A stretch of 64,000 nt of DNA from Enterobacteria phage vB_EcoM_IME540: sequence record MT150133.1, one strand, 5' to 3'. The notes under the pieces were generated by a model that saw nothing but the letters and a program-made list of their open reading frames with translations, was not told the origin of the DNA and did not search any database. Below, in pieces: positions 10,971-21,773 of this stretch. The stretch's first letter is position 1. Every line of letters starts with the position of its first letter. Made by a program: the position numbers and the translations under genes.

Positions 10971-11199
10971 CGTCTCGTTCCCATGATTGTTTAAAAATAT
11001 CTTGCATAATAATTTGAAGTCTATTTTCTGTTGATGGACTTTCACTATCAGACACTTGAAGCATATAGTCACCAATAGGACAGAACATATCCAAGTCGCT
11101 TTCTAAATCTTCTTTGATTTTCTCTTCTGACGTTCCGGTATCATAGGAATACAGATAAGAATCACATGACTCGGATTTAATATAAATCGCAATACTCAT
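10963..11199 (-). CDS. hypothetical acidic protein (78 aa)
   Basis: Track ORF with 8-nt and 4-nt overlaps to its neighbours. Confidence 0.55.
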   Translation of the reverse strand: MSIAIYIKSESCDSYLYSYDTGTSEEKIKEDLESDLDMFCPIGDYMLQVSDSESPSTENRLQIIMQDIFKQSWERDDE

Positions 11200-11789
11200 T
11201 TACGGCATTCCTCAATAAACTCATTTAAATTCCGTTTGATTTTACCTTCGTCGTAAAGACGTTGTTGACGACGTAAACGCCATGGCATTTCAATAGCCAA
11301 GCACCAAATACTTAAAGCAGCGCCAGCTGTGAAAAGGTTCATTAATCCAGCACCAATAATAGTTCGTTCTAGCGCATCATTCCAGTTAGCATCGATTAAA
11401 AATGAACTCAACACTAACATTGGAAGTAAAGTAATAAAATATGCTACAACATATCGTCTGAACGTAAGCCATTCAGTATCGATGAGCTTAGCCTTTCCAT
11501 CTTGGAGACAAATATACTTATCGTCAGTGCGGGTGATTTTCTTTACTGGTTGCCAGCCGTTTACGATATAGCCCATTTTATATTCCTCAATTAAAAGCTG
11601 TTTCATTTCGGCAGTACAACCTGACCAATCTATTGTACTGGCTGAAATTCCTTCATCACCGTCATCGATATTTCGCCAGGACTTTTTAATAATCATATGT
11701 TCACCACTTGGGATAATAATTCCAGCATTTTCCGACCGACGGATGAAGTTTGTATCAATACCCATACAACCGGGTTCATAAAGGGCCAT
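11196..11789 (-). CDS. membrane protein (197 aa), soluble N-domain plus 2 C-terminal TM helices
   Basis: Hydrophobic stretches VVAYFITLLPMLVLSSFLI and IIGAGLMNLFTAGAALSIWCLAI. C-terminal tail KRNLNEFIEECRK. Confidence 0.6.
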   Translation of the reverse strand: MALYEPGCMGIDTNFIRRSENAGIIIPSGEHMIIKKSWRNIDDGDEGISASTIDWSGCTAEMKQLLIEEYKMGYIVNGWQPVKKITRTDDKYICLQDGKAKLIDTEWLTFRRYVVAYFITLLPMLVLSSFLIDANWNDALERTIIGAGLMNLFTAGAALSIWCLAIEMPWRLRRQQRLYDEGKIKRNLNEFIEECRK

Positions 11790-12478
11790 TACCAGCCCTC
11801 CATAGGGAATTCCAGATATACTTGAGCATTAACGCGGATTTCATTAGTAATCTTTTTAACTCGGTCGGTATTACGAGACACACGACCAAACCAGCGCCAA
11901 CCGTTACTTACTGCACGAGAACCTGTATGCCATGTCTGCCAATCAAACTGGAGCAACGTGCGGTCGGGGGCATCCCACTTGGTTAATTCATTAGACTCAA
12001 TTTTTTCCAGAACTTCTTTATGCCACTGGCGATAGATAAGTTCGCCTTCAGGAATCTGACTGAATTGTGCAGTTCCGGTTGCAAAATGAGTAGGACACAC
12101 ATCAGCGTTAACAAGACCAAGAATATGTTCAGAATGGTATCGAGGATTATCATAATCAGGTTGCCCTGCGGTAATAAAGTGTTGACCCACCGGAATATCC
12201 GGGCGTGGTACATCATCATGGTGGAAGCCTGGAATTGCAGGGTACCAGCCAGGCATTAACATGTGTACACGGGAATCAAATACAATATCAGGGCCACATT
12301 GCCAATCTTCAGGCAGGTTTTCAATAAAGCTACGAGTAATAGGACCGCCATGTTTATGAGCAAAATAAGCATCGCAATTAAAGAACATAGGCTCATTTTT
12401 AATCATATCATTACTGATATCTTGAGCAAAACCACCTACTGCACGAGCTTTAGAATTAAAAATTTTTGGACCGTTCAT
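11789..12478 (-). CDS. putative 2OG-Fe(II) dioxygenase-fold protein (229 aa)
   Basis: HxD-type motif PGFHHDD, a distal His in WQTWHTG, and R-x-S (GRVSR) about 14 aa later. Motif-level call only. Confidence 0.4.
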   Translation of the reverse strand: MNGPKIFNSKARAVGGFAQDISNDMIKNEPMFFNCDAYFAHKHGGPITRSFIENLPEDWQCGPDIVFDSRVHMLMPGWYPAIPGFHHDDVPRPDIPVGQHFITAGQPDYDNPRYHSEHILGLVNADVCPTHFATGTAQFSQIPEGELIYRQWHKEVLEKIESNELTKWDAPDRTLLQFDWQTWHTGSRAVSNGWRWFGRVSRNTDRVKKITNEIRVNAQVYLEFPMEGW

Positions 12479-13762: not shown

Positions 13763-14002
13763 TTAAATTTCAGCGACGTAATCGTTATGCAATTCCCACA
13801 TATCATCAGAATTATTCTTAATGATAGGAATTATCTCATTAGAGATTTCTTCAGCATAAGGGTCATTGATACAGTGGGCATCTTCAAAACGAACACCGTA
13901 ATCAGACTTCTTATAAGAGAAGCCATAAATCTTTTTAAACTTGGCGCGAGTAATGCGTACCGGTTCATTAGACTTATCGGACATCGGAGCGTAATACCAC
14001 AT
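13763..14002 (-). CDS. hypothetical protein (79 aa)
   Basis: Track ORF with a strong GAGGAG SD. First gene after candidate promoter 14030-14059. Confidence 0.55.
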   Translation of the reverse strand: MWYYAPMSDKSNEPVRITRAKFKKIYGFSYKKSDYGVRFEDAHCINDPYAEEISNEIIPIIKNNSDDMWELHNDYVAEI

Positions 14003-14029: not shown

Positions 14030-14059
14030 ATAGTAACATGATTTTCTAGAGTTGTACAT
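14030..14059 (-). promoter_or_regulatory. candidate early promoter (ATGTAC -18 nt- TGTTACTAT)
   Basis: Extended -10 TGTTACTAT and a degenerate -35. Overlaps the stop of ORF 14046-14375. Confidence 0.45.
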
Positions 14060-14375
14060 CACTTCTGCAATATTCTAAAAATAATTTATCATTGTCTACT
14101 GTATCCCAACGACGCCAAGACGGGTTCCAGACCAAAGCGTTGTCACCACAATCATTGAGCTTAAAATGGTCGTAGTACATAGCTATGTGTCTAGTCTCGT
14201 CACCAGAGAACCCCAGTATAGGCTCACCGTGGGTGTGATACATATGATGGTGCATTGAGAGGTCGCATTTGTAAAACATCTCACGTTTACCACGAACGAA
14301 CAAGAAGGCCTGTCCATTCATATAGAATTCTTTATTTGTTTTCAAAAGATATTTGAATACTGAATCTTTATGCAT
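14046..14375 (-). CDS. hypothetical His-rich protein (109 aa)
   Basis: Trimmed to ATG 14375 (TAGGAGG SD). Carries the cluster SMHHHMYHTHGE. Confidence 0.55.
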   Translation of the reverse strand: MHKDSVFKYLLKTNKEFYMNGQAFLFVRGKREMFYKCDLSMHHHMYHTHGEPILGFSGDETRHIAMYYDHFKLNDCGDNALVWNPSWRRWDTVDNDKLFLEYCRSDVQL

Positions 14376-14405
14376 AAGTCCTCCTACCACATCCATGTGG
14401 TTAAA

Positions 14406-14633
14406 TTATTTTCCTAACGAAATACGAGTAGGTTTTTTACCGAAATAGTCTTCATAAGAACCATCTAAACGACCTGCTTTAGACCGACAATATGAATCGT
14501 ACTTTTTGTAATAAGTCATCTCAGTATTATAACGCGGGTGTCTATCAGCCATAATAATACTTAACGGCCAACCTTTGGCATAATCGCGAAGACCATTTAT
14601 TTTACGAATGTATCTTTTCTTTAATTTTAGCAT
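14406..14633 (-). CDS. hypothetical basic protein (75 aa)
   Basis: Track ORF. Its ATG overlaps the last codons of the upstream paralogue (TCATGCTAA). No clear SD, so translational coupling is presumed. Confidence 0.45.
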   Translation of the reverse strand: MLKLKKRYIRKINGLRDYAKGWPLSIIMADRHPRYNTEMTYYKKYDSYCRSKAGRLDGSYEDYFGKKPTRISLGK

Positions 14634-14851
14634 GAGCTCGGATACCAGATTTTACCATCGGCCTGAGCAACGAAGGTGCGTCCAGCTTCTTCACCATAAC
14701 AAGAGCTATTCAGCCAATCTTCGAGACGAACTTCACCGTCATAATCGTCGAGCTCAACACCAAAACTTTGAGCAGAAGCCATATCTTTTACTTTCTTATA
14801 CAGTGCAGCCAGTTCAAGTGCGGCTTTTTCTAATTCATTAATATCAGTCAT
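14627..14851 (-). CDS. C-terminal-Cys paralogue 1 (74 aa)
   Basis: Track ORF trimmed to ATG 14851 (AAGGTGA SD). MTDINELEKAALELAALYKK...EDWLNSSCYGEE...GKIWYPSSC-stop. Confidence 0.6.
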   Translation of the reverse strand: MTDINELEKAALELAALYKKVKDMASAQSFGVELDDYDGEVRLEDWLNSSCYGEEAGRTFVAQADGKIWYPSSC

Positions 14852-14861
14852 TTTTATCACC

Positions 14862-15074
14862 TTAGCAAGACATAGAGGATGTAAACCAGAAACCTTCACC
14901 ATCTGGGATACCGTAATCATCACGGGCCCATTCATAATCATCATATTCCGGATTCTTTGGAGAAATGTATTGTCCACGACCAGAAACATGGAACTCTTCA
15001 CCCGTTTCGTCAGCCACGGCCTGGCCTTTACGTACTAATTCGCGGATTTGTTTTTCAATTTCATCAATAGTCAT
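14862..15074 (-). CDS. C-terminal-Cys paralogue 2 (70 aa)
   Basis: MTIDEIEKQIRELVRKG...GEGFWFTSSMSC-stop. Confidence 0.6.
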   Translation of the reverse strand: MTIDEIEKQIRELVRKGQAVADETGEEFHVSGRGQYISPKNPEYDDYEWARDDYGIPDGEGFWFTSSMSC

Positions 15075-15083
15075 TTTATTTCC

Positions 15084-15365
15084 TTAACATTCAGAAGAAG
15101 AGGACACCCAACCGCCATTTTCTAGGCTGGTGGTGTAATCATGCTGGTTTACAATAGCATACTGGGCTTCACCGTATTCTTCCCAGTGGGCAAGGTCGGC
15201 TTTCAAGGCGCCAGGAGAATAATAGTCACCGCCCATACCGCGAGCAGGGTATATATTAAAATGAGTCTCATATTTGTTAGCAATTTCCTCGGCACGACGA
15301 ATAGCTTTATGGATATCATTTACTGCGTCAGCCAGCTCTTTATTTTTACGGTAATCATTCATCAT
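15084..15365 (-). CDS. C-terminal-Cys paralogue 3 (93 aa)
   Basis: AAGGAA SD. ...DIHKAIRRAEEIANKY...GMGGDYYSPG...NGGWVSSSSEC-stop. Confidence 0.6.
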   Translation of the reverse strand: MMNDYRKNKELADAVNDIHKAIRRAEEIANKYETHFNIYPARGMGGDYYSPGALKADLAHWEEYGEAQYAIVNQHDYTTSLENGGWVSSSSEC

Positions 15366-15374
15366 AGCGTTTCC

Positions 15375-15665
15375 TTAGCACATTGCCGAAGAGGAGACCC
15401 AAGCACCAACTGTAACGACACCGTTTTCAACTTCACCGCCATTGTTTTCAATTTCATCTTTAAACCATTGGGAGCATTCATAACCGACAGGATAATATGT
15501 ACGGCCTGAACCATAACCACCGGTACTGAATTCAATACCATATTCATCTGCGATTTCTTCACATTTGGATTCGATGGTGCCTACTTTACCCAGCAGGTCA
15601 TAGATAGCCTTTTCTGCGGACAGCGCGCTGTTGTATTCAGGGATTTCAATTTCAATTTTATTCAT
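15375..15665 (-). CDS. C-terminal-Cys paralogue 4 (96 aa)
   Basis: ATGA overlap with the upstream gene. ...AEKAIYDLLGKV...GGYGSGRTYYPVG...VGAWVSSSAMC-stop. Confidence 0.6.
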   Translation of the reverse strand: MNKIEIEIPEYNSALSAEKAIYDLLGKVGTIESKCEEIADEYGIEFSTGGYGSGRTYYPVGYECSQWFKDEIENNGGEVENGVVTVGAWVSSSAMC

Positions 15666-16015
15666 GATTTACATTCCTTAATAAAGGTTTCAAGGTCATT
15701 ACGTTTAGTTTGTTTTACATACTCATTATAATTAACCATAGCTAAAGCATATCTCTTTTTACGCGGCTTGTTTATTTTATTAGTTTGGGCAATATCAAAG
15801 ACCCATGGGATAAAAAATCCTATTAAAGCCGGAACCCAAATCCATGCAAGGCTCATATCTTCAAACGGATGGCGAGGCATACCATTAATAATCCCACCGA
15901 CAAGAAATCCAATTATCCCTGCAGTCATACTAGTAGCAATGCCGAGGAATAAGGAAATAGCTATATCATAATCTGCTAATGCGTAACCAGGGTCGGTTTT
16001 ACTAGGCTTATGCAT
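15662..16015 (-). CDS. membrane protein (117 aa, about 3 TM helices)
   Basis: Trimmed to ATG 16015 (MHKPSKTDPG...). Hydrophobic segments IAISLFLGIATSMTAGIIGFLVGGII and LAWIWVPALIGFFIPWVF. Tail KRNDLETFIKECKS. Confidence 0.6.
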   Translation of the reverse strand: MHKPSKTDPGYALADYDIAISLFLGIATSMTAGIIGFLVGGIINGMPRHPFEDMSLAWIWVPALIGFFIPWVFDIAQTNKINKPRKKRYALAMVNYNEYVKQTKRNDLETFIKECKS

Positions 16016-16544
16016 TTTGAACCTCTTTAGCGTATTCGCGACATTCAGTAATAAAACGATTAAGTTTACGTTGTTGTTTACGAATCTCTGATGTATACTC
16101 ATTGGCTAAAATAATAAGCTCATCTTTATCGTAATTTTTAATATCCGAATAACTCGGGCGGCGGTCGACCATACCAAAGTGGTCACCATTTTCTAACATC
16201 AAATAGCATACTAAATGGTAATCATCGTCGGCATCAACAAGCTGTTTATAATCGCTTGGTTCATTTAAAGAGTATACTGAATAGCGTAGCCCAGCGAATT
16301 CCACTCGTTGAATAGCCAGATTTACGTCAATAATTTCTAAAGCATCTGCAAAAGAAAGGTCCTCAGCTAAAGCAAAGATAAAGGGTAATTTGGTAGTATG
16401 CCCACGGCTAGATGTTCTGCTTAAGAAATCGTTTGAATAACCTAGGTCTTGGCGAATTCTATAAAGAACTGCATTAGTTTCATGTGAAAGACCACTATGT
16501 TTAAACCAATCAATATTTGATATCAGGTCGTCGTATAAACTCAT
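16008..16544 (-). CDS. hypothetical protein (178 aa)
   Basis: Track ORF with GGAGGAGAGGAG SD. The C-terminal region contains RKLNRFITECREY. Confidence 0.6.
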   Translation of the reverse strand: MSLYDDLISNIDWFKHSGLSHETNAVLYRIRQDLGYSNDFLSRTSSRGHTTKLPFIFALAEDLSFADALEIIDVNLAIQRVEFAGLRYSVYSLNEPSDYKQLVDADDDYHLVCYLMLENGDHFGMVDRRPSYSDIKNYDKDELIILANEYTSEIRKQQRKLNRFITECREYAKEVQNA

Positions 16545-16567
16545 AATATTCTCCTCTCCTCCAAATA

Positions 16568-16585
16568 GGGAGACCGAAGTCTCCC
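16568..16585 (-). promoter_or_regulatory. intergenic hairpin GGGAGAC-TTCG-GTCTCCC
   Basis: Perfect 7-bp stem with a TTCG loop between ORFs 16593-17186 and 16008-16544. The same 18-mer forms the gene 23 terminator at 56603-56620. Confidence 0.55.
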
Positions 16586-16592
16586 GGTAACA

Positions 16593-17186
16593 TTACTTAA
16601 GTGAATTAATGTAGTCTTCGATATCAGCAGAAGTCGTATCCATTCCAACTTGCGGGCCTTTAAACGTTTCTACGCGCATCAGGGTGTCTTCGATATCAAT
16701 CTTGGTCAGTGCAGCAATTTCAACAACATCGTCGGCAGTAGCAATACCAAGGGCAGCCATATTACGAGTTTCACGGATGTACTCGAGCTTAACAGCCAGT
16801 TCCTGACGAGAGTCATCAAGTTCCTTAACCTTCAGTTTAATTTCATTACGCATTTCGATATAATCATCGGCTTTCTTACGAAGCTGAGTAGCTGTACGAC
16901 GATAAAGGAGACCGAGTTTAGCATGTACCTGGACATCAGAGCCTTCGGCAATCAGTTTACGAATTTCACGTTCTTTAGAAGCAGCGAGCTGGTCTTTTTC
17001 ATTAGCCAAAGCACGAATACGTTTTTCTTCATTCACAGACTTAACATGAGCAGTCTGGAGTTCAGTGATTTTATCAATCAGAGTAGAAGCAGCTTTGGTG
17101 TATTGGTCTTCGATTGACAGGTTCTGAGCCATTGCGGTGCCCAGTTTAGAACGAATGAATTCAACGATTTTCTTTAAAGTGTTCAT
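16593..17186 (-). CDS. coiled-coil protein, PspA/IM30-like (197 aa)
   Basis: Trimmed to ATG 17186 (AAGGAA SD), because the track 5' extension covers promoter 17230-17259. Long heptad-rich helices; the layout (IEDQ..., [17 protein letters not shown]..., [28 protein letters not shown]) resembles PspA. Pattern-level call only. Confidence 0.4.
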
Positions 17187-17229
17187 AGTATTTCCTTCAG
17201 TTGGTTGATATTTTGTAATCCATGAGGAC

Positions 17230-17259
17230 ATTATACCCTGTCCTCTGAGGTTTGTAAAC
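17230..17259 (-). promoter_or_regulatory. early promoter (GTTTAC -18 nt- TATAAT) with inverted repeat around the -10
   Basis: Minus strand GTTTACAAACCTCAGAGGACAGGGTATAATGTCCTC. The arms GAGGAC/GTCCTC bracket the -10. Confidence 0.7.
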
Positions 17260-17262
17260 ATT

Positions 17263-17661
17263 TTATTTCATTTTTGCGAGGCAGATTTCATTGGCTTCCC
17301 ATTGAGCTTGCTTAATAATAGCTTTGGATACAGGAGCCCTTTGCCCATAAGTTTTTGACGTTGAGAGAACAATACATTTGTTTGCTTCATTATGCCAGCC
17401 CCATGATTTTTCGCCATGAGTACCTTTAACTACAGCTGACACCTCAACAGAGCAACCGCCATCAGAAATCTTGGTTTCGACAACCCATTCATTTCTCTCA
17501 GCAGCTTCAATTTCTAATCTAGTTTTTTCTTCATACATCGCGGCCCAATCAGTTTTTGCCAAGTTGAAAGTAAGAGCTTTCTCTAATTCTTTGGCATATT
17601 TTTGTTGTTCAGGTGTTAATGAATTATACAACTCTTGCATTTCTTTATCTTCGATATTCAT
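17263..17661 (-). CDS. hypothetical protein (132 aa)
   Basis: Track ORF with GAGGAG SD, behind promoter 17687-17716. Confidence 0.6.
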
Positions 17662-17686: not shown

Positions 17687-17716
17687 ATAATATCTTAATC
17701 ATGAGCCCATGTAAAC
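17687..17716 (-). promoter_or_regulatory. early promoter (GTTTAC -18 nt- TATTAT) with 10-bp inverted repeat
   Basis: Minus strand GTTTAC-ATGGGCTCAT-GATTAAGATATT-ATGAGCCCAT. Arms lie at 17679-17688 and 17701-17710. Confidence 0.65.
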
Positions 17717-17719
17717 GTT

Positions 17720-17983
17720 TTATTTCATATTATTGAAATAATTTTCTGCATCAAAATCATTACCATGGTAAACTTTGGTAGACGATTTGGCGTAACCTTC
17801 AGCTGAGAACATATTAATCACAACTTTAATTGTATACCACTGTCCATCTTCATTACCCATTACTGCATAGGTTTCATACACCGGGTGTTCAGGACCGATA
17901 ACCTTAATATCGTTAACTGTGGCACCAAATTCTTCCGGAACGCATTTCATAAAGAAATTAAACACTTCACCATAATTATCCAT
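17720..17983 (-). CDS. hypothetical protein (87 aa)
   Basis: Track ORF starts at a GTG; trimmed to ATG 17983, which is preceded by GGAGAGTAAA. Confidence 0.55.
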   Translation of the reverse strand: MDNYGEVFNFFMKCVPEEFGATVNDIKVIGPEHPVYETYAVMGNEDGQWYTIKVVINMFSAEGYAKSSTKVYHGNDFDAENYFNNMK

Positions 17984-18018
17984 TTTACTCTCCTTCACTC
18001 TGTTGTTTTGATAGGTCT

Positions 18019-18047
18019 ATAGTATCATGTTTAAAGGAGGTGTAAAC
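18019..18047 (-). promoter_or_regulatory. early promoter (GTTTAC -17 nt- TGATACTAT)
   Basis: Conserved 15-mer present. The spacer CCTCCTT is complementary to the downstream SD AAGGAG. Confidence 0.7.
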
Positions 18048-18103: not shown

Positions 18104-18658
18104 TCAGTTCTTGTAGAACCGGAACGGGTTTATGTGGAAGGCTAACATAGCCTTAGGGATTTTACGAGACAAAAGACTCTTAAGTTTCCAACCACAGTAC
18201 ACGCGAAGGTAAAAGGTAATTCCACCTACTTTAAGATACGGAACCGAAGCAAAGACTCCCCATGCTTCATCATTCCACATCCATAACCAACCATGGTGAG
18301 CTTTATCAGGAGAACCAGATTCTACATCAGGATTACCGCGATAATGGAATTCTGAACTACAATCACGTCCTAGTTTATGATAAGCAAAGTTATAAGCTTT
18401 ATTTCGCCATAGCCAAGCTACTCTCTGGAGGTAAACACCACCAGGCATTTTCCTGATTTTAGCCCAACGTTTAATATGACCTTTGTCGCCATCAATTGGA
18501 TTATCGTATGTCATCATCCAATCAAAGCCATAAGGCAATTTACCGGTCTTTTTATTGTAGAAAGGAACTACAAAAGGCGCAAGGATAACGGCTAGAACCA
18601 TAGAGATAAAATCCAGCGGGACCAACAGAATCCAACTCAAATATTTTAAAAGTTTCAT
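18104..18658 (-). CDS. membrane-anchored protein (184 aa), apparently late-expressed
   Basis: N-terminal TM helix LSWILLVPLDFISMVLAVILAPFVVPF and a Trp/aromatic-rich body. Preceded by TATAAATA and flanked by identical terminators. Confidence 0.6.
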   Translation of the reverse strand: MKLLKYLSWILLVPLDFISMVLAVILAPFVVPFYNKKTGKLPYGFDWMMTYDNPIDGDKGHIKRWAKIRKMPGGVYLQRVAWLWRNKAYNFAYHKLGRDCSSEFHYRGNPDVESGSPDKAHHGWLWMWNDEAWGVFASVPYLKVGGITFYLRVYCGWKLKSLLSRKIPKAMLAFHINPFRFYKN

Positions 18659-18952: not shown

Positions 18953-19027
18953 TGGTATCCCGCCCTGGGATCGAACCAGGACCGCAAACTTAGAAGGATC
19001 GTATGCTATCCATTACACCAGCGGGAC
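18953..19027 (-). tRNA. tRNA-Arg (anticodon UCU), CCA encoded
   Basis: GTCCCGCTGGTGTAATGGATAGCATACGATCCTTCTAAGTTTGCGGTCCTGGTTCGATCCCAGGGCGGGATACCA. The cloverleaf folds by hand: 7-bp acceptor stem, T arm CCTGG-TTCGATC-CCAGG, anticodon loop CTTCTAA. Confidence 0.9.
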
Positions 19028-19032
19028 GTAAT

Positions 19033-19698
19033 TCAAAATTTTATTTTACGGCCTTTATTCCAACCTTCAGGAATAATATCCGTTTTGTTAATACGTTTAG
19101 AAACTTTTTCTTCTAAAGAATGAATCCACATTTTTCCATATCCGGAATTATTTTCACCTTGTTGGTGTTTATTTCTGGCGTGAGATTCTTTCATTTTATT
19201 TTTGGTTTCATCTGAATGGGTCTTACCCAAGAAAGATTTAGTATTTGAAAATTTCTCTCTATACTTAGGATTATCCCAAAGTTGTTTAAACCTTTCCGAA
19301 CCCATTTTACGATATTTTTCTTTAAGGTCTGGGTCGTTCTCAAATCTGGTTTTAAAAGCGGCAACTCCTTTTAAGGAAGCTTCTTTCTTTTTATCTAAAT
19401 ATTCTTCAGTGTTTAAATGGTCCCAACCACCTTCACCACCTAATTTCAAATTATAAACATCAGGGCGCTTTAAAAACTCTTCAGTCACAATATTCTTTTC
19501 TGACTCAAACATAGAGGTTTTATCGTCAAAGAACTCTAATATTTCTTTAGAGAAATTTTCTATACCGTATTTGACCTGGGCCCTTTTTAAGAGTTTACCA
19601 GAACCAAAATATGCATCATTCAAATTTTCGGTTGAATGGGCGCCTATATAGATTTTATTATTAATTTTGTTTGTTATTTTATAAGTGTAATGGAACAT
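19033..19698 (-). CDS. segB: GIY-YIG homing endonuclease, SegB-like
   Basis: 221 aa. MFHYTYKITNKINNKIYIGAHST...FGSGK (GIY-YIG) plus NUMOD-like basic repeats. Sits between tRNA genes, as T4 segB does. Confidence 0.75.
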   Translation of the reverse strand: MFHYTYKITNKINNKIYIGAHSTENLNDAYFGSGKLLKRAQVKYGIENFSKEILEFFDDKTSMFESEKNIVTEEFLKRPDVYNLKLGGEGGWDHLNTEEYLDKKKEASLKGVAAFKTRFENDPDLKEKYRKMGSERFKQLWDNPKYREKFSNTKSFLGKTHSDETKNKMKESHARNKHQQGENNSGYGKMWIHSLEEKVSKRINKTDIIPEGWNKGRKIKF

Positions 19699-19739
19699 AA
19701 ATATCTCCTATTTCTAAGAGTATTTATGTTCTCAAAATA

Positions 19740-19810
19740 TGGCCCTGGGTGGAATCGAACCACCATCCAGCGATTATGAGTCGCTCGCTTGACCGTCCAG
19801 CTACAGGGCC
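19740..19810 (-). tRNA. tRNA with anticodon CAU (elongator Met, or Ile if lysidine-modified)
   Basis: GGCCCTGTAGCTGGACGGTCAAGCGAGCGACTCATAATCGCTGGATGGTGGTTCGATTCCACCCAGGGCC(A). 7-bp acceptor stem, anticodon stem AGCGA/TCGCT with loop CTCATAA, T arm GGTGG-TTCGATT-CCACC. CCA not encoded. Confidence 0.85.
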
Positions 19811-21744: not shown

Positions 21745-21773
21745 ATAGTATCATGCCTATAGACCTTGTAAAC
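21745..21773 (-). promoter_or_regulatory. early promoter (GTTTAC -17 nt- TGATACTAT) with 10-bp palindrome
   Basis: Minus strand GTTTACA-AGGTCTATAG-GCATGATA-CTATAGACCT-ATCAAAAC. Arms lie at 21739-21748 and 21757-21766. Confidence 0.7.

Follow-up and report, generated by a model that had tools for sequence, protein, structure and literature searches.

Among the plastic regions of T4-type phage genomes is the one that separates lysozyme gene e from the tRNA genes (Arbiol et al. 2010, PMC2839356; Comeau et al. 2014, PMC4122927). In T4 it is occupied by the e.2-e.8 cluster, a match to which gives gene names but no function, because the T4 genes are themselves functionally uncharacterised. The equivalent region of Enterobacteria phage vB_EcoM_IME540 (record MT150133.1) is described here from a stretch of 64,000 nucleotides, referred to below as the window. 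It contains nine minus-strand genes between positions 14046 and 17186, four of which encode small paralogous proteins with an invariant C-terminal tail ending in cysteine (the Cys-tail family), and, further downstream, the gene of a protein composed of the DUF7277 and DUF7275 families, which is referred to as the enzyme on the strength of its predicted activities. We propose, with a probability of roughly 0.6, that the functional unit in this mosaic region is the Cys-tail array together with the DUF7277+DUF7275 enzyme, and that the two would work as an enzyme and its partners by way of the tail.

Several described systems resemble such a pair. GlnD is a nucleotidyltransferase and HD-domain enzyme that reversibly uridylylates the small protein PII. 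The phage enzyme, too, appears to have two domains, a GS...DxD signature followed by a helical domain with His and Asp invariants, and it is coupled in the genome to small proteins with an invariant hydroxyl-bearing motif. The two systems have no detectable sequence homology, however, and the likeness is one of analogy only: the acceptor in PII is a Tyr residue in a loop, whereas here it would be a C-terminal Ser/Cys tail, and the phage partners are multi-copy, acidic and unrelated to PII. The MNT-HEPN and AbiEii/MenT toxin-antitoxin pairs similarly contain a protein of ~300 residues, in which a minimal nucleotidyltransferase motif at the N-terminus precedes a helical C-domain, and a small partner is encoded beside it. 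The phage system differs in being encoded by virulent phages and in having its partners arranged in arrays, with a Cys motif that is strictly terminal; the enzyme has no PADLOC or Pfam match to these families. In the ThiS, MoaD and Bil (ubiquitin-like/E1) systems small proteins with an invariant extreme C-terminus are likewise found beside an enzyme, namely the one by which this terminus is processed, but the Cys-tail ends in Cys and not in Gly-Gly, the fold is not a β-grasp and the neighbouring phage enzyme lacks a ThiF/E1 signature. A ubiquitin-like/E1 interpretation was rejected on the grounds of fold and gene content. Invariant C-terminal signatures elsewhere mark chemical handles, such as the Gly-Gly of ubiquitin-like proteins and the CaaX boxes, and a fixed, Cys-ended C-terminus on freely diverging bodies is a signature of this kind.

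The window is DNA of a Dhakavirus, a T4-like coliphage. The 3.9 kb around the nine genes shares 97.5% identity with Escherichia phage LHE83 and 92-97% with the JS98-group phages WG01, QL01, MX01, Bp7 and IME08, all of which are Dhakaviruses of the Straboviridae. In annotated relatives the stretch is flanked by e, nudE and e.2 downstream and by e.8 and tRNA genes upstream; tRNA-Arg and tRNA-Met are found at 18953-19810 of the window. The block thus has the genomic position and the strand of the T4 e.2-e.8 cluster, between gene e and the tRNA genes. The two clusters have in common e.6 (74% identity) and e.8 (80% identity), an e.3-like membrane protein, a C-terminal F-[IV]-x-E-C-[RK] motif, which is present in T4 e.2, e.3 and e.5 and in window genes, an early promoter upstream of e.6 and a hairpin downstream of it. 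They differ in that T4 has neither the Cys-tail genes nor the DUF7277+DUF7275 gene in this region, and that a basic protein and a His-rich protein have been added in the window.

All four Cys-tail paralogues of the window match phrog_899 and have the invariant W..SS..C end, which no other open reading frame (ORF) of the window carries. A profile search of 1.84 billion representative sequences retrieved 212 clusters (50% identity) at E <= 1e-3, and the family therefore comprises at least that number. The chain terminates with Cys in 165 of 178 related proteins that were recovered; among these 165 sequences Trp is found at position -7 in 157, Ser at -4 in 158 and Ser at -3 in 157. The tail can be written as G-x-W-x-[S/A/P]-S-S-x(0-2)-Cys-COOH and is carried by small acidic bodies, the 138 motif-bearing members having a median length of 86 residues, a mean net charge of -7.9 and, in most cases, a single Cys. 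The rest of the chain is free to vary: when 118 members were aligned, only the Trp, the two Ser and the Cys were invariant, and the mean column identity was 20%. An AlphaFold2 (AF2) model of a Cys-tail protein, with a predicted local distance difference test score (pLDDT) of 94.4, consists of one long helix and a small sheet, the last strand of which holds the conserved Trp. The predicted fold has no significant match among solved structures, and all BFVD matches at E <= 0.001 are uncharacterised phage proteins of the same family fold. Searches of Pfam, NCBIfam, PADLOC and PDB sequences gave nothing significant for the family, and IMG/VR yielded no relatives of three distant single members. 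The number of copies in the array varies among close relatives, since a fifth paralogue (...SWVSSSYEC) is present in IME08 (L002:7282-7485) and in VR7 (array at L004:7001-8260).

The enzyme gene is situated 0.9 kb below the array, or 0.9-1.6 kb downstream of the individual paralogues, and on the same strand. Homologues are present in at least 734 phage records, with Escherichia, Klebsiella, Acinetobacter, Pseudomonas, Aeromonas, Stenotrophomonas and Erwinia among the hosts, and reduced forms occur in actinophages. The residues G6-S7-x-A9, D25-x-D27, K125-x-S127-H128, D193-H194-D195-x-x-H198, E240-E241 and E248-R249 are invariant in 15 diverse homologues. In the N-domain the invariant pattern is hhGSxA...DxD, followed by an acidic strand motif E-h-E; GS...DxD is the minimal signature of nucleotidyltransferases, from which we infer that the N-domain is nucleotidyltransferase-like and a candidate for the Pol-β-type superfamily. 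The C-domain has the invariants KxSH, DHDxxH, EE...ER and KVC(T/S)SITSG. Its residues H128, D193-H194-D195, H198 and E240/E241 resemble an HD-type metal site, and this domain is possibly like a metal-dependent hydrolase. The names given to homologues in the databases are diverse: two GenBank records call them 'putative nucleotidyltransferase', and in phage vB_EcoM_005 the enzyme and the basic protein are labelled 'prohead assembly scaffold protein' or 'major capsid protein', names that look like propagated errors. No literature was found on DUF7275, DUF7277, the PHROG numbers or the RB69 and JS98 ORF names, and a search for 'e.6/e.5/e.3' returned irrelevant papers. No annotation and no solved structure was found for either the enzyme family or the Cys-tail family as such.

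The genes of the two families are neighbours on the same strand in numerous phage lineages that are unrelated to one another. The metagenome contexts of nine distant Cys-tail members contain a DUF7277+DUF7275 gene in all nine cases, within about two genes in most of them and, in one, after a run of tail-bearing paralogues. The genes that flank the pair differ from one context to another, for example DnaB/PolA/Thy1, gp32/gp59/NAMPT or PrkA/SpoVR/Thg1. When the search was seeded from the enzyme side, Cys-tail genes were found at seven of nine newly fetched loci of unrelated phage records; the positive lineages include Otagovirus, Phapecoctavirus, Menderavirus, Busanvirus, an Acinetobacter phage of the Twarogvirinae and a 366-kb Erwinia phage. 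All five T4-like loci that hold the enzyme carry Cys-tail genes as well, and T4 has neither family in this region. An automated count in IMG/VR gave one to six Cys-tail copies at 73 of 80 enzyme loci (two of the seven negatives turned out to have variant tails that the search pattern missed), and Cys-tail genes accompany 16 of the 17 enzyme clusters formed at 60% identity. The tail-motif ORFs at these IMG/VR loci are on the strand of the enzyme in 173 out of 173 cases, and none is on the other strand. The number of Cys-tail copies per locus ranges from one to six, and the enzyme stays single. Furthermore, the Cys of the enzyme motif KVC(T/S)SITSG (EKVCTSITSGWF in the window) is kept in 97 of 99 homologues examined. 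Ile takes its place only in Vibrio phage V09 (KVP40-like) and Streptomyces phage Annadreamy, the exceptions among the phage-record loci, whose enzymes are ~250 residues long and are not accompanied by Cys-tail genes. Enzyme and tail may accordingly be related through a Cys-Cys contact or a shared metal.

In the proposed arrangement the enzyme would recognise the tail common to the variable small acidic proteins, and would either modify it covalently, at the Ser hydroxyls or at the terminal Cys, or be steered or controlled by it. Because the Cys is strictly terminal, the terminus itself is likely to be involved in the chemistry or in ligation. The variable acidic bodies could then provide different target specificities in host takeover or counter-defence. 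A more specific version of this scheme is put forward tentatively, with the odds somewhat against it: that the pair constitutes a new tail-modification system of large virulent phages, in which the enzyme would nucleotidylate or otherwise derivatise the W-x-S-S-x-x-Cys-COOH end of rapidly diversifying small acidic effectors, so that these would be armed, or switched, for the takeover of the host or against its defences. Should the pairing turn out to be catalytic, a protein modification new to phages would be added to those known, and a large block of early genes now called 'hypothetical' would become accessible to functional study; therapeutic phage candidates carry several of them.

A number of results weigh against this interpretation. 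The nucleotidyltransferase and hydrolase assignments are based on short motifs only: 15 diverse members of the family, searched at E <= 10, matched DUF7277 and DUF7275 and neither Pfam NTP_transf nor HD, the enzyme has no match among PDB sequences or in PADLOC, and hhalign comparison with the E. coli CCA-adding enzyme and kanamycin nucleotidyltransferase gave a probability of <1%. The 80 IMG/VR loci include many that are closely related, which reduces the independent count to ~17 lineages. Moreover, a few enzyme loci (L044 and the L072/L096 group) have no Cys-tail gene within 3.5 kb, and in the window the array and the enzyme gene have three unrelated genes between them. These last two points could also indicate that the adjacency is a matter of historical hitch-hiking in plastic early regions, where small genes are shuffled as cassettes (PMC2839356), and that the tail serves a separate role such as metal binding, oligomerisation or host-factor recognition. 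This is very improbable, because the pair recurs amid wholly different flanking genes in the Straboviridae, Otagovirus, Phapecoctavirus, Menderavirus, Busanvirus, the 366-kb Erwinia phage and several metagenomic lineages, and its common orientation has no exception. The same tight adjacency, with reading frames that overlap at two loci (L010 and L105), would suit Cys-tail proteins that are inhibitors, antitoxin-like regulators or specificity subunits, the terminal Cys of which plugs or ligates a metal or Cys site in the enzyme. Nucleotidyltransferase-fold toxins with small acidic partners are known in toxin-antitoxin biology, the strictly terminal Cys suggests that a free carboxylate and a thiol matter, and the enzyme Cys is lost exactly in the partner-less homologues. 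On the other hand, up to six divergent copies per enzyme would be unusual for a stoichiometric inhibitor, and an addiction module would be of little obvious benefit to a virulent phage; we regard this explanation as rather unlikely. The terminal Ser-Ser-x-x-Cys is also superficially like the core motifs of lanthipeptides and AviCys peptides, a lead only, and several precursor copies beside one enzyme are typical of the clusters that make such ribosomal peptides. The Ser/Cys tail would in that case be converted into a thioether or AviCys-like structure and released. However, the body is a confidently folded globular domain (pLDDT 94) with the Trp in its last strand and has no disordered leader, and the tail is just 5-8 residues long. 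More than 20 annotated loci contain no LanB/LanM/LanD, radical-SAM, YcaO, protease or exporter genes. With this gene content and the globular fold, the modified-peptide precursor was rejected as extremely improbable.

A different delimitation of the system was given in a preliminary description of this DNA, which was made from its letters alone. There, the nine genes were taken to be one membrane or envelope module, or a defence-evasion module, with a PspA-like membrane remodeller, a membrane protein and the diversified small-protein family at its core. The common strand, the overlapping or closely spaced gene starts and the single strong early promoter favour such a unit, as does the ATGA overlap between the membrane gene and the first Cys-tail gene, which is present in Dhakavirus, VR7 and RB69. 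The distribution of the genes, obtained by tblastn of the window proteins against the fetched loci, is a different matter. All nine are found in Dhakaviruses. In VR7 the e.3-like gene is accompanied by five paralogues, but e.6, the 178-residue protein gene and the genes of the basic and His-rich proteins are missing. RB69 has e.6, e.5, e.4, e.3 and four paralogues; a frameshift divides the first of these into ORF139c and ORF138c (L005:6989-7295). Pet-CM3-4 has e.6 and two paralogues, and T4 has e.6 and e.3 only. The number of records in the phage collection is 64 for the His-rich protein, 82 for the 178-residue protein, 173 for the basic protein, 259 for one of the Cys-tail paralogues and 734 for the enzyme. 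The nine genes thus do not move as a block. Their phyletic ranges and neighbours differ, the array exists without e.6 in VR7 and e.6 with e.3 exists without the array in T4, and a conserved hairpin splits e.6 from the rest. The supposed remodeller, furthermore, has no sequence link to PspA, as described below. A single nine-gene module is therefore considered improbable; by its gene content the stretch is a mosaic, and the partner with which the paralogues do co-occur lies outside the boundaries that had been drawn. The preliminary description was right, nevertheless, that the genes are not unrelated filler, because the W-x-S-S-x-x-C tail is common to four of them and a second C-terminal motif, F-[IVL]-x-x-C-[RK], to three others. 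The mosaic can be divided into four layers: e.6 with its own promoter and 3' hairpin, which is widely conserved in T4-like phages; the gene in the e.5 position and the e.3-like membrane protein; the array of four Cys-tail paralogues; and the basic and His-rich proteins as lineage-specific fillers. Transcription would be early and would start from the promoter and stem-loop cassette upstream of the e.6 orthologue.

The features of the block and of the genes that follow it are collected in Table 1. The nine minus-strand ORFs and their spacing are as first described, and so is the remaining anatomy, with its promoter, hairpin, four paralogues and basic and His-rich proteins.

Table 1. Positions of genes and regulatory elements in the block and downstream of it, in the direction of transcription
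Feature	Position in window	Strand	Remarks
Early promoter with stem-loop (putative)	17223-17258	minus	TTTACA-17-TATAAT, 11/12 matches
e.6 orthologue, 197 residues	16593-17186	minus	74% identity to T4 e.6; phrog_1203
Hairpin directly after e.6	16568-16585	minus	GGGAGAC-UUCG-GUCUCCC, C(UUCG)G tetraloop
Acidic protein, 178 residues, T4 e.5 position	16008-16544	minus	phrog_8788
Membrane protein, 117 residues, T4 e.3/e.4 family	15662-16015	minus	phrog_2330; FIKECKS tail
Cys-tail paralogue, 96 residues	15375-15665	minus	ends GAWVSSSAMC
Cys-tail paralogue, 93 residues	15084-15365	minus	ends GGWVSSSSEC
Cys-tail paralogue, 70 residues	14862-15074	minus	ends GFWFTSSMSC
Cys-tail paralogue, 74 residues	14627-14851	minus	ends KIWYPSSC (shortened tail variant); phrog_899 E = 1.7e-9
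Basic protein, 75 residues	14406-14633	minus	net charge +12; phrog_7065
His-rich protein, 109 residues	14046-14375	minus	8 His, SMHHHMYHTHGE, F-L-E-Y-C-R tail; phrog_9796
Promoter-like element ahead of gene 13763-14002	14031-14058	minus	TGTACA-17-TACTAT, CATGT upstream of -10 box
Protein of 79 residues, between array and enzyme	13763-14002	minus	RB69 ORF135c homologue; phrog_3723
DUF7277+DUF7275 protein, 319 residues	12784-13743	minus	Pfam E = 7e-77 and 2e-26

The first gene of the block is the orthologue of T4 e.6, to which its product can be aligned over the full length (197/197 residues; phrog_1203, E = 4e-84), and it has the same neighbours, e.8/e.7 and e.5/e.3, in T4, RB69, Bp7 and IME08. 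The homologues that were aligned are 46-94% identical and come from T4-like phages of Escherichia, Klebsiella, Pectobacterium, Serratia, Yersinia and Aeromonas. The statement in the preliminary description that no T4 gene corresponds to any of the nine does not hold for this gene, nor for the e.3-like membrane protein gene. UniRef names the e.6 homologues 'Host specificity protein', which looks like a propagated error. In the AF2 model the protein is a long hairpin of two helices (residues 25-80 and 86-145) with an additional N-terminal helix. Sequence profiles do not bear out the label 'PspA/IM30-like' that was given to it earlier. Pfam PspA_IM30 (PF04012) is not matched even at E <= 1, there is no match to the NCBIfam PspA models, and the e.6 alignment, compared by hhalign with E. 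coli PspA, gave a probability of 0.4%. A search of the e.6 profile against PDB sequences returned noise only. When the model was compared with known structures, Vipp1 was outscored by BAR and SNX domains and by numerous further coiled coils. The resemblance of the modelled protein to PspA, IM30 and Vipp1 of the ESCRT-III superfamily appears to be that of a generic helical hairpin.

The 117-residue membrane protein matches T4 e.3 in BLASTP with E = 3e-9 over residues 1-116 and phrog_2330 with E = 1e-43, which places it in the T4 e.3/e.4 membrane family as judged by these alignments. It had been described as having three transmembrane (TM) helices; its membrane character is confirmed, but the number of helices is uncertain, as the two hydrophobic stretches correspond to 2-3 TM helices. 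The gene shares no more than 52% identity with its counterpart in IME08 and is bordered by flanks that are >=95% identical, which suggests replacement of an allele or cassette. The 178-residue protein, found in 82 phage records at >=60% identity (T4-like phages of Escherichia, Shigella, Salmonella and Yersinia), matches T4 e.5 only in its 15 C-terminal residues (E = 0.003), which contain the motif F-I-x-E-C-R. The basic protein is encoded elsewhere in the genome in phages of other genera, and its gene is a lineage-mobile filler. The His-rich protein, in contrast, is confined to close relatives, all of its records being >=80% identical. Neither protein has informative relatives in Pfam, NCBIfam, PADLOC and PHROG scans.

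The second C-terminal motif, F-[IVL]-x-x-C-[RK], joins the 178-residue, membrane and His-rich proteins. Within the last 25 residues of the ORFs of the window it occurs in four real genes only, the fourth being 11196-11789 on the minus strand; the four sequences are NEFIEECRK, LFLEYCRS, TFIKECKS and RFITECREY. The motif is also present in T4 e.3 and e.5 and in several genes of RB69 and Pet-CM3-4, and an unannotated 51-residue ORF of T4 (L003:3473-3628), which ends in NNFITECRKLK, carries it as well. Phage loci that hold the enzyme do not have it unless they belong to the T4-like group. The motif could serve these proteins as a common docking peptide, or it could be a linker for recombination.

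T4-type early promoters have the consensus TTTACW-N17-TAYWAT (PMC4122927), and those that are combined with a stem-loop, situated at the boxes or in the interval that separates them, and known as promoter-early stem-loop (PeSL) elements, are found in hyperplastic regions ahead of non-essential genes (PMC2839356, PMC4122927). The promoter upstream of the e.6 orthologue (17258-17230) is the best sigma-70 site in 7 kb. A 7-bp stem, GAGGACA/TGTCCTC, overlaps its -10 box (-12.6 kcal/mol, z = -2.29). T4, Bp7 and RB69 have a promoter at the equivalent place, and in RB69 the stem is preserved by compensatory changes (GAGAGCA/TGCTCTC). The element has the composition by which PeSL cassettes are defined, with an AT-rich stop region, the TTTACA-N17-TATAAT promoter, a stem-loop over the -10 box and the Shine-Dalgarno sequence and ATG of a non-essential gene, although its activity is putative. 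The next two genes upstream, one encoding a 132-residue protein (17263-17661) and the other the e.8 orthologue (17720-17998), have T4-type early promoters of their own at 17687-17715 and 18019-18046 on the minus strand. The block differs from a series of such cassettes in that the PeSL type is confined to its upstream boundary. None of the eight genes past the hairpin of e.6 has its own cassette; instead of being single-gene cassettes, they probably act together as a polycistronic tail.

The exact early consensus occurs on the minus strand at 21772, 21205, 18046, 17715 and 17258, and then not until 9609. The promoter and the promoter-like element that had been noted at the ends of the block are of unequal standing: the upstream one is strong, whereas the element at 14058-14031 is below the threshold of a generic sigma-70 scan, although it is only one mismatch away from the T4-type consensus. 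Apart from this element, the common strand, the gene overlaps and the long interval without a T4-type early promoter fit a single early operon, and tight coupling of the co-oriented genes downstream of a strong early promoter, as originally proposed, is borne out. The conserved hairpin after e.6 counts against a strictly single operon. Equivalent hairpins with other stems follow e.6 in T4 (GGGGC-UUCG-GCCCC) and RB69 (GGAGGAC-UCCG-GUCCUCC). A terminator scan made no call at the window hairpin, which has no U-run and is for that reason likely to be an RNA 3' stabiliser or attenuator and not a strong terminator. This reading leans on the intercistronic UUCG hairpins of T4. No terminator was found at 14046, after the ninth gene, so early transcription from 17258 probably runs on into gene 13763-14002 and the enzyme gene. 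A candidate MotA-type middle promoter is present at 15725-15749 on the minus strand, ~60 nucleotides upstream of the first Cys-tail gene, and consists of ATATGCTTTA, 12 nucleotides and TATAAT. It was not relied on, since the MotA-like box, found also in IME08, has mutations in Bp7, VR7 and RB69 and is located inside the coding sequence of the membrane protein, which makes its function doubtful.

The e.6 gene is separated from the 178-residue protein gene by a 48-nucleotide gap (16545-16592) that contains the hairpin. The later junctions are, in order, overlaps of 8 and 4 nucleotides, gaps of 9, 9 and 10 nucleotides and an overlap of 7 nucleotides; the overlap of 4 is the ATGA at which the stop of the membrane gene meets the first Cys-tail start. 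A 30-nucleotide gap (14376-14405) precedes the His-rich gene if the latter starts at the ATG at 14375. This start is the probable one, because it has an AGGAGG Shine-Dalgarno sequence and coincides with the first position of the PHROG alignment, residue 8 of the longer ORF. The ratio of non-synonymous to synonymous substitution rates (dN/dS) against Bp7 and IME08 was calculated for the nine genes, the upstream 132-residue protein gene, gene 13763-14002 and the enzyme gene. It is 0.02-0.51 for all twelve, except that the gene of the 75-residue protein is identical in DNA to the Bp7 copy and gives no ratio for that pair. The twelve genes are thus under purifying selection and are real coding genes. 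The membrane gene and three of the paralogues (14862-15665) have relaxed ratios of 0.2-0.5, compared with 0.04-0.1 in the flanks. Beyond these genes, the region is flanked on the minus strand by two conserved proteins, by a membrane-like protein of the DUF7338 family (E = 2e-63) at 18104-18658 and by a 229-residue phrog_1843 protein with a PGFHHDD motif at 11789-12478.

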